Shown here piece after piece: positions 49,241 through 53,683 of a stretch of DNA of 64,000 nucleotides (positions within the stretch are counted from its first letter, which is position 1; every line of letters begins with the position of its first letter). The notes beneath the pieces were generated by a model. That model had not been told where the DNA came from and did not search any database. It saw only the letters and a list, made by a program, of their open reading frames with translations. The position numbers and the translations under genes were made by a program. Origin of the DNA: Longimicrobiales bacterium (GTDB lineage: Bacteria; Gemmatimonadota; Gemmatimonadetes; Longimicrobiales; Gaopeijiaceae); contig CBDCNQ010000005.1 of assembly GCA_965219445.1 (NCBI GenBank), forward strand, positions 1,408,001 to 1,472,000, written 5' to 3'.

Positions 49241-49651
49241 TCAGGGCTCGCCCGCGGCCTCCGCGAGACGCTGGTCTGCGGTGAGGAGCTCGAGCCCCTC
49301 GATATGCCTTCGAGCGAGGAGGTAGGTCGAGAGGTGGAGCGCATCCAACGTGCGGAGCGACTTGGTGGGAGCGACCCGTTCCGCAAGCTCACACACCTGC
49401 GCCGTGAGTCCCCATACGTCACAGCGCGCCCAAAGGGCATCCAGCTCTCTGGTCGCGTCCGCGAGCGCCTGCTCGCTCACGAGCCCCCGCGTGCGAACCC
49501 GAAGGACGGCCCGGGCAGCCTCGACCAGCGACAGTCGAGAGGTGACGAGCAGGGTGGCGTTTTTGATGCGCTCCTCGACCTTCGGGCTGGTACCTGCCTC
49601 CAGAAGCGCGCGGAGTACGGCGGAGGTGTCTAGATAGAGGGGCACCGTCAT
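49241..49651 (-). CDS. vapC: PIN-domain (VapC-type) toxin
   Basis: YLDTSA, E in SLVEA, LRTLDALHL, LLTADQRL; ATGA overlap with antitoxin. Confidence 0.88.
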   Translation of the reverse strand: MTVPLYLDTSAVLRALLEAGTSPKVEERIKNATLLVTSRLSLVEAARAVLRVRTRGLVSEQALADATRELDALWARCDVWGLTAQVCELAERVAPTKSLRTLDALHLSTYLLARRHIEGLELLTADQRLAEAAGEP

Positions 49652-49962
49652 GAGTCGCTGGGAGACCAATCGCGTCGCAGCTCGTCGAGCAGCTCGGCCG
49701 CGCTATCCTCCGGCAGCCCGAGCCCGCACGTTTGCCACGTCCAATCGTTCTTTGGCGTCCGAGCCCGTTGAAGCTCGCCCGCTTGGGCCAGGCCCTCCAG
49801 GATGTCCTCGATGTCGTCGCGTGGTGGAAGGCGGCCGGACACCGGACGGATCTCGGCGATGACCTCGTCGCGATCGGTTACCAGGAGGGTCTCCCCCGCC
49901 TTAACCGCGCGCAAATACTCGGACAGCTTGGCCTTCAGCTTCTTCACGCCCACAGCCTTCAT
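49648..49962 (-). CDS. Phd/YefM-family antitoxin
   Basis: MKAVGVKKLKAKLSEYLRAVKAGETLLVTDRDEVIAEI. Confidence 0.88.
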   Translation of the reverse strand: MKAVGVKKLKAKLSEYLRAVKAGETLLVTDRDEVIAEIRPVSGRLPPRDDIEDILEGLAQAGELQRARTPKNDWTWQTCGLGLPEDSAAELLDELRRDWSPSDS

Positions 49963-50043: not shown

Positions 50044-50071
50044 TTGACATGCCACACAGCTTCGCTATCGT
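50044..50071 (+). promoter_or_regulatory. Putative sigma70 promoter of the pro operon leader
   Basis: TTGACA-N16-TATCGT, ATG 7 nt downstream at 50079. Confidence 0.6.
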
Positions 50072-50078
50072 CCGTCAC

Positions 50079-50227
50079 ATGATCTTTTCGACCATTTCGA
50101 CAGCTCTTTGACCCTTTCGACCGAACTGACCGTGAACCAGCACGTACGACCGCGACGCCGACCGCGAACCGACCGTCCACTTCCCAGGGAGCGGGCGCGT
50201 CCTGTCTTGCGTGGGGAGATTCGATAG
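50079..50227 (+). other. Candidate leader uORFs: MIFSTISTAL* (50079-50111) coupled by TTGA overlap to a 39-aa Pro/Arg-rich uORF (50108-50227)
   Basis: Read from the sequence; lies between the promoter and a terminator that precedes proC. Confidence 0.4.
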
Positions 50228-50258
50228 AACCACCTTCAACCCCCTAGACCTGACGTTC

Positions 50259-50289
50259 GCCGGCCCCCATTCCAGGAGCCGGTTTTTTT
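50259..50289 (+). terminator. Intrinsic terminator in the 5' leader of proC (attenuator-like)
   Basis: GCCGGCCCC-cattcca-GGAGCCGG then T7; ends 18 nt before the proC ATG with no upstream co-oriented gene. Confidence 0.75.
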
Positions 50290-50307
50290 GTTTCCGAGAG
50301 GTTTCCG

Positions 50308-51153
50308 ATGTCCGCAAAAAAAGCATCTGAATCATCGTCCGCCGACCTGGCAATTCTGGGCGGCGGGAACCTGGGCCAAGCCCTTGCACGTGGCTTGGTA
50401 CGTAGCGGGACGCTACGGCCTGAGCAGATTCACGTCACTTCTCTGCATCCGCCCGGCCTGGAGGGATTGGCCGAGGAGGGATTCTCGGTCGGGCGCGATA
50501 ATCTCGCTGCTATCCGGGGCGCGAGTACCGTTCTGTTGGCGGTTCAGCCGCAACAGATCGTGGATCTTCTCGACGAGATCCGGGGAGGTATCGATTCCGG
50601 ACGCCACAAGGTCATCTCGGTGGTGTCCGGCGTGACCGTCGCTCAGTTGCGGGAGATGATCCCGGCTCCGACTCAGGTCGCGCGGGCCATGCCGAATACG
50701 GCGGTCTCGATCGGAGAGTCCATGACCTGCCTCTCGGCCGATCCCGATTCGATGGCTGCCCTCGAAGAGGCGGAAATGTTATTCAAAGGCGTCGGAATCA
50801 CGCTCCGCATCGAGGACGAGATGATGGTCGGAGCCACGGCTTTGTGCGCATGCGGCGTAGCGTTCTTTCTCCGATCGGTTCGGGCGGCCTCGCAGGGCGG
50901 TATCGAGATCGGCTTCCACCCCGAGGACGCGCTCCTGCTCGCGGCACAGACGGCCAGGGGAGCAGCCTCACTTGCCCTTCGCGATAACCAACACCCGGAA
51001 TCGGAGATCGACCGGGTCACGACCCCCCGTGGCTGCACTATCGCGGGGCTGAACGAGATGGAGCATCAGGGCTTCAGCTCCGCGATGATCAAGGGCTTCG
51101 TGCTTTCGGCACGCAAGGCCGGTGCACTGTTCGATGAAGGGGACGCGGCGTGA
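50308..51153 (+). CDS. proC: Pyrroline-5-carboxylate reductase
   Basis: ILGGGNLG, LAVQPQ, RAMPNT, VTTPRGCTIAGL. Confidence 0.93.
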   Translation: MSAKKASESSSADLAILGGGNLGQALARGLVRSGTLRPEQIHVTSLHPPGLEGLAEEGFSVGRDNLAAIRGASTVLLAVQPQQIVDLLDEIRGGIDSGRHKVISVVSGVTVAQLREMIPAPTQVARAMPNTAVSIGESMTCLSADPDSMAALEEAEMLFKGVGITLRIEDEMMVGATALCACGVAFFLRSVRAASQGGIEIGFHPEDALLLAAQTARGAASLALRDNQHPESEIDRVTTPRGCTIAGLNEMEHQGFSSAMIKGFVLSARKAGALFDEGDAA

Positions 51154-52418
51154 CGGACACCCCGGGCACCGGCGCCGGCCGGGACTTCGGTGACCTCCGC
51201 AGAGTCGTGGTCAAGGTCGGGAGCGGCATCATCGCGCCCACAGGGCACCTCGATCCGCTCGTCATCGAGCGTATCGCCAAGGACGTCACAGAGCTCCGTG
51301 ACACAGGCCTCGAGGTCGTCCTGGTCGTGTCGGGTGCCGTCGCGGCGGGATACCTCGGGATGGGACGGGATCAGCCCCCGACATCGGTCGTCGAGCGGCA
51401 GGCCTCCGCGGCGGTGGGGCAGTATCAGCTCATGACAATGTTCGCACACGAGTTCGAGAAGTGTGACACCGTCGTCGCGCAGCTCCTCATGATGCAGGAG
51501 GACATCGAGGACCGGCGCCGGTTCCTGAGTGCCAGGCACACGCTACAGGAGCTCCTGTCGCGGAGCGTCCTTCCCATCATCAACGAGAACGACCCGCTCG
51601 CGGACGACGAGGCGAAAATCGGGGATAACGACCATCTCGCGGCGCTCGTGACCAGCCTCATCACGGCGGATCTGCTCGTGATTTTGAGCACGGTCGCCGG
51701 CGTGCTTCGGTTTGACGAAGACGTGGCCACGGGCGGTGAGGAGGGCACAGGAGGTAAGGAGGCCCGCCAGGACGGCGATGACCGAGCCCACACCGCCGAG
51801 GTGATCAGCACCATTGAAGTCGACTCCGAGATCGACATCCACATCACCGATGACCAGAGTGAGACCGGCGTAGGTGGGATGAGGGCCAAAGTCCGGGCGG
51901 CGAGGCTGGCGAGTGACTGGGGCGTTCCCACCGTCATCGCTTCGGGCAGGGAGCCCGGACTTCTCACGCGCGTCGTGAAGGGCGATGAGGTGGGATCGCA
52001 CTTCGTAACGGGCGCCAAACGCCTCACCGAGCGCAAGCGGTGGATCGCCATCCGGACGCGTTCCCGTGGTTTGATCGTCGTGGACGACGGCGCCAAACAT
52101 GCGCTCATCGAGCGTGGAGCCAGCCTACTGCCGGCCGGGATCCTCAAGGTCGAAGGGGACTTCGGGATCGGTGCGCGCATCGATCTGCTCGACGGGCACG
52201 GACAAGCGTTCGCGGTGGGTCTCGTGTCGTACCCGGCTTCGGAGATCGAGCGCATGAAGGGACGGCAGAGCGAGGAGTTCCAGGAGGTGCTCGGATACAA
52301 GTATGTGGAGGAGATCGTGCATCGAGAGGATCTGGTCTTGCTCGACGTGAAGAACGACAATGGAGAGAGCCTCGACGATAAGGAGAGCGCCTTCGACGAC
52401 GGGGAGGACCGGGGATGA
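51150..52418 (+). CDS. proB: Glutamate 5-kinase with PUA domain
   Basis: VVKVGS, VSGAVAAG, QASAAVGQ, INEND, GDND, GGMRAK, SLLPAGI. Confidence 0.95.
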   Translation: MTDTPGTGAGRDFGDLRRVVVKVGSGIIAPTGHLDPLVIERIAKDVTELRDTGLEVVLVVSGAVAAGYLGMGRDQPPTSVVERQASAAVGQYQLMTMFAHEFEKCDTVVAQLLMMQEDIEDRRRFLSARHTLQELLSRSVLPIINENDPLADDEAKIGDNDHLAALVTSLITADLLVILSTVAGVLRFDEDVATGGEEGTGGKEARQDGDDRAHTAEVISTIEVDSEIDIHITDDQSETGVGGMRAKVRAARLASDWGVPTVIASGREPGLLTRVVKGDEVGSHFVTGAKRLTERKRWIAIRTRSRGLIVVDDGAKHALIERGASLLPAGILKVEGDFGIGARIDLLDGHGQAFAVGLVSYPASEIERMKGRQSEEFQEVLGYKYVEEIVHREDLVLLDVKNDNGESLDDKESAFDDGEDRG

Positions 52419-53683
52419 GTGAGGCAATGAAAGAGGTGATGAGTGAGGTACGGAGGGCGGCCGAGGCCGCACGCGACGCCGCACAGCACGTGGCGACGCT
52501 CACGACCGAGCAGAAGAACGACTACCTCCGTGATCTGGCGGGAGCGCTCGTGGCCGCCGAGGAGGACATCCTCCGGGCCAACGCCGCGGACCTCGCACGC
52601 GCTGAAGAGGATGGCTTGTCGACACCCAAGCTCAAGAGGCTGGGCCTCACGGCCGAGAGCCTCACGCAAATGGCCGAAGGGCTGAGGCAGGTCGCGGTCC
52701 TCGACGATCCGGTCGCGCAGGTCACCCGGGACCAGACCCTCGACAACGGTCTTCGCGTAACTCGCGTGCGCTGTCCGCTTGGCGTCGTGATGATGATCTA
52801 CGAGTCACGCCCGAACGTCACGATCGACGCGTTCTCCCTCTGCTTCAAGTCGGGCAACGCCTGCATCCTCAAGGGCGGCAAGGAGGCGCAAGGCAGCAAC
52901 GAAGCGCTCGCCGAAGTGATCCACGCCACGCTTCGCGAGCACGGTCTGCCCGAGGAGGCACTCGTGCTCGTGGGCTCCGGCGGACGAGAGGCCGTCGCCG
53001 AGCTGCTCACCTTCGACGACTGTATCGATCTGGTCATCCCGCGCGGCGGCGAGCCGCTCATCCGATACGTGAGCGAAAATTCCTCCATTCCGACCGTGCA
53101 GCACTTCCACGGGGTCTGCCACGTGTACATCGACGCCGACGCGAATCTCGAGCAGGCGCTGGAGATTTCGGTCACCGGCAAGACGTCGGCGCCGGCCACC
53201 TGCAACGCGACCGAAGCCGTGCTGGTCCATGAGGACGTGGCGGCGACGTTCGTGCCCGATCTCGCCGCTGGCTACAGGGAGGCGGGCGTCGAGGTCCGTG
53301 GGGACGACGCCGTACGTGCCATCGAGGCGGATGTGACCGTCGCCGCCGCGGACGACTGGGGCCGGGAGTTCCTCGATATGATCGTGGCAGTGAAGGTGGT
53401 TCCCGACATGGACGCGGCCATCGATCACATCCGCCGCTTCGGCTCGGATCATACGGATACGATCGTCACCGAGAACGCGGAGACGGCCGCGGAGTTCACC
53501 AACCGGGTTCAGTCGTCGTGCACCCTGGTGAACGCGTCGACACGCTTCAACGACGGGTTCCAGCTCGGCATGGGCGCCGAGATCGGGATCAGCACGTCCC
53601 GCGTGCACGCGTACGGGCCGATGGGCCTGGAGGAGCTGACCTCGCAGCGGTTCGTGGTGGAGGGAGCGGGGCATGTGCGATGA
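52415..53683 (+). CDS. proA: Gamma-glutamyl phosphate reductase
   Basis: PLGVV..IYESRPNVT, KSGNA..LKGGKEA, IPRGG, CNATE, NASTRFNDG, GAEIGIST, GPMGL. Confidence 0.95.
   Translation: MSEAMKEVMSEVRRAAEAARDAAQHVATLTTEQKNDYLRDLAGALVAAEEDILRANAADLARAEEDGLSTPKLKRLGLTAESLTQMAEGLRQVAVLDDPVAQVTRDQTLDNGLRVTRVRCPLGVVMMIYESRPNVTIDAFSLCFKSGNACILKGGKEAQGSNEALAEVIHATLREHGLPEEALVLVGSGGREAVAELLTFDDCIDLVIPRGGEPLIRYVSENSSIPTVQHFHGVCHVYIDADANLEQALEISVTGKTSAPATCNATEAVLVHEDVAATFVPDLAAGYREAGVEVRGDDAVRAIEADVTVAAADDWGREFLDMIVAVKVVPDMDAAIDHIRRFGSDHTDTIVTENAETAAEFTNRVQSSCTLVNASTRFNDGFQLGMGAEIGISTSRVHAYGPMGLEELTSQRFVVEGAGHVR

Follow-up and report, generated by a model that had tools for sequence, protein, structure and literature searches.

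Leader-peptide attenuators of the textbook kind serve the synthesis of Trp, His, Thr, Phe, Leu, Ile and Val, the classical examples being hisL and trpL of E. coli and the two-signal leaders thrL (Thr and Ile) and ilvL; for arginine synthesis, control by a repressor is the standard example, and the proBA genes of Firmicutes are controlled through a proline T-box. In Salmonella, mgtL is a leader with Pro codons, and the nascent SpeFL peptide senses a free metabolite in the tunnel of the ribosome. The principle of classical attenuation is set out in PMC1183508, and a uORF of ilvB in Corynebacterium is described in PMC11109978. The leader of Salmonella mgtP has Pro codons in its uORF and read-through that is governed by charged tRNA-Pro (PMC3641672), while consecutive Arg codons in the speF uORF (orf34/SpeFL) sense arginine near ornithine metabolism, acting via Rho, unfolding of the ribosome binding site and RNase G on an ornithine-consuming gene (PMC6386406). 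The literature that we searched, largely outside subscription journals, yielded no attenuator with a leader peptide for the biosynthesis of proline or arginine: the available part of the main text of PMC2965389 mentions neither amino acid, and the available parts of PMC8632094 and PMC11109978 contain no Arg/Pro leader motif.

The region that we describe here is a conserved regulatory leader with a promoter, a uORF and a terminator, located ahead of proC-proB-proA in the window, i.e. the whole 64,000-nucleotide stretch that was analysed. It resembles the classical attenuators in having a short uORF rich in codons for the likely products of the pathway, in its predicted protector, antiterminator and terminator, and in the intrinsic terminator before the first gene; it differs from them in its control codons, which are Arg and Pro, and in its operon, proC-proB-proA. 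As thrL senses two amino acids, so the proCBA leader is proposed to sense Arg and Pro. With mgtP/mgtL it shares the Pro codons of the uORF that would control read-through by charged tRNA-Pro, but those leaders serve Mg2+ transport and virulence genes, whereas the operon here is biosynthetic and Arg dominates. Unlike speF orf34, the proC leader has an intrinsic terminator, and its genes likely make the precursor of ornithine. The Firmicutes T-box is comparable in its terminator-type control of proBA, but the proC leader gives no T-box match and its conserved uORF suggests sensing by the ribosome. Our preferred reading, to which we give a probability of roughly one half, is that the leader is a ribosome-stalling attenuator that senses Arg and Pro and replaces control by ArgR.

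All features of the leader and operon lie on the forward strand of the window. The sigma-70-type promoter (TTGACA-N16-TATCGT) is present at 50044..50071, as the sequence-only reading had claimed, with its -35 box at 50044-49 and its -10 box at 50066-71; it is the only promoter-like site across 2 kb (0.4 expected), and it is retained among relatives, with the DNA on its 5' side diverging. The predicted 5' UTR of the leader (50079..50131), whose start is placed from the -10 box, is pyrimidine-rich, with units repeated every ~10 nt (seen at 50080-50131). The conserved uORF of 31 codons (VNQHVRPRRRPRTDRPLPRERARPVLRGEIR, 50132..50227) follows, with a GTG start and a weak SD position at 50123..50125, and contains 11 Arg and 5 Pro, with 7 Arg and 4 Pro falling within the 14 candidate control codons R6-R19 (50147..50188). 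The predicted protector (1:2) hairpin is located at 50171..50201 (-16.8 kcal/mol), and the predicted antiterminator (2:3) spans 50187..50268, with its 5' arm at 50187-50216 and its 3' arm at 50240-50268 (-33.1 kcal/mol). The intrinsic terminator (3:4) occupies 50259..50289 and consists of a hairpin at 50259-50283 (-13.3 kcal/mol) and a T7 tract at 50283-50289, 18 nt from the start of proC; it is thus found where it had been read from the sequence, and a simple terminator scan misses its hairpin.

The three genes of the operon each pass their NCBIfam cut-off, in agreement with the identities first assigned to them: proC (50308..51153; TIGR00112; SD at 50296-50301) encodes pyrroline-5-carboxylate reductase, proB (51150..52418; TIGR01027) glutamate 5-kinase, and proA (52415..53683; NF001221 and TIGR00407) glutamate-5-semialdehyde dehydrogenase. 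A ProB with 81% identity to that of the operon carries the label Gemmatimonadota, which suggests this phylum for the source. The statement that no T-box is present also holds, as Rfam cmscan returned no T-box match (with E as high as 10 for the window and 1 for genome G356), and across the 4227 Rfam models no riboswitch or leader family matched the proC leader, which gave chance-level unrelated matches only. Divergent from the leader, at window positions 49241-49962 on the minus strand, lie a gene for a Phd-family antitoxin (TIGR01552) and an adjoining PIN-like ORF; the gene on the 5' side of the promoter is not the same among relatives. The copy number of the UTR repeats also varies among relatives, and ribosome standby, Rho loading and a protein site are candidate roles for these units.

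A DNA search of 314 genomes of the family matched the leader in 15 of them, 12 with the full leader, across four genera, and 3 with a partial one. The leader genomes are closely related, with a completeness of 73-95% (92% in the source genome, G000), and our conservation counts rest on the 12 genomes unless stated otherwise. Identity across the 12 is 87% in codons 1-14, 95% in codons 15-31, 89% in the 3' arm and 95% in the terminator; the loop after the uORF stop reaches 76%, and the four-fold sites of proC 58%. Since 87-95% identity stands against 58% at these four-fold sites, the leader is conserved more than expected by chance. The start (GTG 50132) and the stop of the uORF are kept in all 12 genomes; both the uORF and the terminator are conserved in the relatives. 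An exact 30-base pattern retrieved a further 24 metagenome stretches, with proC read downstream in 20 of them and one more ending after three proC residues, and with no proC read in the other three under the start rule applied; the pattern spans codons 19-28, and invariance there is therefore built in for the metagenome loci. From 33 loci (12 genomic and 21 of the 24 metagenomic), the distinct leaders were taken into an alignment of 26 rows.

The leader is reduced or lost where proBA was not found: G009 keeps proC and the hairpin, with no uORF and no proA match, while G275 and G346 have just the 3' half of the leader, behind another gene, and no proA match. In the two latter genomes (loci L030/L209), the remnant starts directly after the stop codon of the other gene, and that of G275 precedes an M24 peptidase whose best match, below cut-off, is Xaa-Pro dipeptidase. 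G342 retains the leader, and a truncated proB is read in its matching locus, L111. Searches with blastn and a covariance model found no paralogous leader within the source genome, and none was found at 79 loci from remoter proC relatives (the known carrier L111, the eightieth, excluded), in the viral contigs searched, or outside the family in a DNA search of 301 genomes of the order. A model search of 151 family genomes gave no new leader save one 25-nt match (E=0.006), and 401 genomes of the phylum held no further member of the proB clade associated with the leader. The unpublished genomes G177, G056, G186, G037, G115 and G127 are counted in negative tallies only.

The uORF that is conserved starts at a different codon from the frames of the sequence-only reading, which were a leaderless ATG mini-ORF of 10 aa at the predicted +1 (50079-50111) and, coupled to it, a 39-aa ORF from TTG 50108. 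Both are present in the source genome, and the content of the longer one, with 5 Pro codons that include all four types and with 11 Arg codons, 5 of them CGA, was confirmed; as conserved features we rejected them, because ATG occurs at +1 in 3/12 genomes (one base before it in a fourth, the frames of these ATGs differing) and TTG at -24 in only 5/12. The source genome alone has changed the GGA before the GTG, to GAA, which the other 11 of the 12 genomes keep, and the TTG coupling may therefore still act locally in this genome. The 5' UTR varies from 31 to 72 nt among the 12 genomes, six of which differ from the source by a non-multiple of 3; frameshifting indels occur just 5' and just 3' of the uORF, and the sole internal indel is of 12 nt. 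The stop codon TAG is swapped for TAA in L063/L066, and none of the five CGA codons of the uORF has become TGA, a change that is common, in both directions, in the UTR repeats. The substitution test is flat, with 12 synonymous changes where 12.6 are expected and a probability of 0.20 for finding no stop, and frame +2 matches the frame of the uORF in its count of synonymous changes. The Thr-rich frame +2 was itself rejected as a peptide, as it lacks a start codon in the source genome and two variants have lost its stop. The peptide of the uORF has no match in NCBIfam. Taken as a whole, these observations make translation from GTG 50132 likely.

As for which amino acid is sensed, the sequence-only reading had named proline alone, and this part of it was not supported. 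Eleven Arg in 31 codons is more than expected (P=0.017, best frame, 2000 leader shuffles), as is the combined count of Arg and Pro (P=0.016, obtained in the same way), but five Pro are reached in 84% of the shuffled leaders (P=0.84 for the best frame, 0.17 in frame), and the setting of the pathway suggests arginine. Conserved Pro codons were nonetheless found among the relatives, since P11 and P18 are invariant in the 12 genomes, as are R10, R15 and R19; the number of Pro codons is what does not rise above chance. Codon 12 encodes either Arg or Pro throughout, and Arg and Pro are swapped at four positions. Arginine is thus the better-supported signal than proline alone. ARAGORN lists for the source genome a tRNA-Arg gene with the GCG anticodon and a second, longer one with ACG, and none with UCG; given that tRNA-Arg(UCG) was not found in this 92% complete genome, CGA would be read by wobble.

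The alternative pairings that were first proposed can be read in the sequence, but folding favours the protector at 50171-50201 and not the pairing of 50180-86 with 50212-18. For the leader as a whole, the folding energy is at chance level (z=0.26), and that of the predicted antiterminator, which takes up the 5' arm of the terminator, is matched by 58 of 1000 shuffles. In the alignment, 90.9% of the antiterminator cells are paired, and four pairs of the protector helix vary on one side; several one-sided changes leave pairs intact. Two-sided covariation, which would have lent further weight to the stems, did not appear, as in no helix, the antiterminator and the protector included, are both partners of a pair changed; in G356, a mismatch of the antiterminator becomes pairs through changes on both arms.

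When a ribosome is modelled at each codon, the terminator is predicted to be off only at about codons 11-16 (P11-P16). The switch window covers R12-R15 with a footprint of 9 nt, extends to P16 if 6 nt are assumed and to P11 if 12 nt are, and, as its centre lies at T13-D14, the choice between Arg and Pro depends on the footprint assumed. With 9 nt, the modelled terminator is off at R15 in 23/26 leaders, on at R19 in 26/26, and on with the ribosome at the stop codon in 18/26; with no ribosome, 8/26 leaders favour read-through. The modelled switch is absent in G356 and weak in G011, and a computed switch also arises in 13 of 40 shuffled leaders. As controls, the model places a switch over the His codons of the source genome's His leader and gives none for its Leu leader. 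The structural case for a switch, as computed here, is consistent but modest.

The genes of the arginine pathway set the operon in a context of their own. Among 38 genomes searched, argC is over cut-off in 8, and in none of the 12 leader genomes; in five genomes (G000, G005, G007, G356 and G237), argB and argJ were found in 0/5, and ornithine aminotransferase and OTC in 5/5. In the source genome, argG, argH and carB are present and nothing matches the arginase family; G356 yielded no carB. OTC occurs only within an arcA-arcB-arcC cluster, and the aminotransferase would run in the ornithine-forming direction. Because argC was found in none of the leader genomes while the source genome has ornithine aminotransferase, OTC and argGH, ProB and ProA likely supply ornithine by way of the aminotransferase, and proBA would serve arginine synthesis here. 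In S. aureus, the steps from the semialdehyde to ornithine are taken, starting from proline, together with a catabolic OTC (PMC9239276, PMC3510247).

The regulator argR was found in 2/12 leader genomes vs 25/26 others; G000 lacks it at the trx-argR-argG position, which G275, G356, G325 and G003 retain, and both argR and the leader are present in G342 and in G356. Since these genomes are related and incomplete, the pattern amounts to one or a few events and is no statistical test. A tandem junction pattern, which we take to be that of the ARG box and which was fixed after the loci had been inspected, occurs within 150 bp before proB in 13/19 other family loci (11 without mismatch), against a background of 1 match in 45 kb, and also before argG in argR-positive genomes. 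Its spacing agrees with that of tandem 18-bp ARG boxes 3 bp apart, as given in PMC3293853. The six proB loci without the junction comprise that of G237, where argR stands directly before proB-proA, that of G161, with a single box, and four others, which have argC. Apparent ArgR control of proBA extends to many genera of the family (L089, L093-L096, L098, L099, L101-L108), in most cases with no argC; G161 and G381 have argC at a distance of a few kb from proB. Compared with the ArgR regulon, the proC leader has no ARG box, the junction being found in none of the leaders of G000, G356 and G342, and argR was not found in 10/12 leader genomes; its regulatory job is likely the same as that of ArgR/ARG-box repression in the sister genera, which carry the boxes before proB. 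The leader likely does, in other words, the job of the ArgR boxes of sister genera.

According to the preferred reading, ribosomes would initiate at GTG 50132 and, when charged tRNA-Arg or tRNA-Pro is short, would stall around codons 11-16 (P-R-x-x-R-P). The stalled ribosome would mask an arm of the protector, and the sequence from 50187 onward, thus freed, could pair with the 5' arm of the terminator; this antiterminator pairing would allow read-through into proC-proB-proA. A ribosome that proceeds past codons 17-19 would instead melt the arm from 50187 onward, and the terminator would form. Arginine would be sensed because ProB and ProA feed arginine where no acetylated pathway was found, their glutamate semialdehyde being converted by ornithine aminotransferase, OTC and ArgGH. 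The attenuator idea thus stands as to a conserved leader of promoter, uORF and terminator, and is altered as to the start codon and the better-supported signal. The evolutionary version, in which an attenuator with Arg (and Pro) codons took over after the loss of argR and proBA is an arginine-regulon operon on a non-acetylated route to ornithine, is advanced tentatively, at a little under even odds. If true, the Arg/Pro leader would bring the glutamate family within the reach of attenuation, it would represent a swap, traceable within one bacterial family, from a DNA-binding repressor to an RNA/ribosome sensor, and regulation alone would show that arginine synthesis relies on proBA and does without N-acetylated intermediates.

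Other explanations account for parts of these observations. If the attenuator responded to proline only, with stalling at Pro codons giving read-through, the Arg codons would be GC-rich filler; yet it is Arg that is enriched and not Pro, the His and Leu leaders of the source genome hold just 2 and 4 Arg, and the ArgR and argC patterns link proBA to arginine, so that we consider this explanation unlikely, even with P16 and P18 keeping Pro through synonymous changes and P11 invariant in the 12 genomes, with three Arg positions that become Pro in some relatives, and with footprints of 6 or 12 nt that bring P16 or P11 into the switch window. It is likewise unlikely that the leader is a non-coding riboregulator, riboswitch-like or protein-bound, whose open frame is a by-product of conserved RNA structure. 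The lack of a coding signature in the substitution test and the fixed third codon positions in the 3' half of the uORF would fit such an element, the repeated units of the 5' UTR could bind a protein, and the argG and gltB leaders of the lineage are conserved and end in terminators without a conserved uORF; against this stand the invariant GTG with its SD, the swap of one stop codon for another, the in-frame nature of the only internal indel, the Arg enrichment, the five CGA codons that never turn into TGA while CGA/TGA flips occur in the UTR repeats, and the lack of an Rfam match.

The remaining explanations are less probable. An arrest peptide that senses free ornithine or arginine in the tunnel, the position of the stall setting termination, would agree with the 95% identity of codons 15-31 and with a pathway that goes through ornithine, but these codons double as helix arms, and RNA structure explains why they are conserved; a 4-codon deletion and many changes are tolerated in the N-terminal half, and a late stall in the uORF leads to termination in the model, all of which makes such a peptide improbable. 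Least probable, in our view, is a constitutive throttle or a relic, in which the terminator merely lowers expression and nothing is sensed: the leader does persist in G342/L111 despite the truncated proB, and its 3' remnant in G275/G346 behind another gene, but ~230 nt, the antiterminator arms included, are conserved far above neutral sites. The preferred reading, a stalling attenuator that responds to Arg and Pro, is the one for which we retain the probability given above.

Additional leaders were observed in the source genome. A His leader peptide before hisG (G000:C5:821980-822170, L223), with a leaderless start at the predicted +1 and a terminator, and a Leu-rich leader with a terminator before leuA (G000:C5:692650-692866, L224) represent attenuators of the classical type in Gemmatimonadota; neither matches Rfam, and the identity of the genes behind them was confirmed. 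A long, conserved leader with a terminator precedes glutamate synthase (gltB; G000:C1:50670-50950, minus strand, L221), also with no Rfam match; it was tried as a second Arg/Pro peptide and rejected, its ORF being frameshifted in 2/3 relatives, and it is likely an RNA element. The leader of argG (G000:C2:29840-29960, L222), with no match in Rfam and without an evident conserved uORF, is conserved and structured, ends in a T-tract and occurs in three genera, with and without argR, as a candidate riboregulator of argGH.
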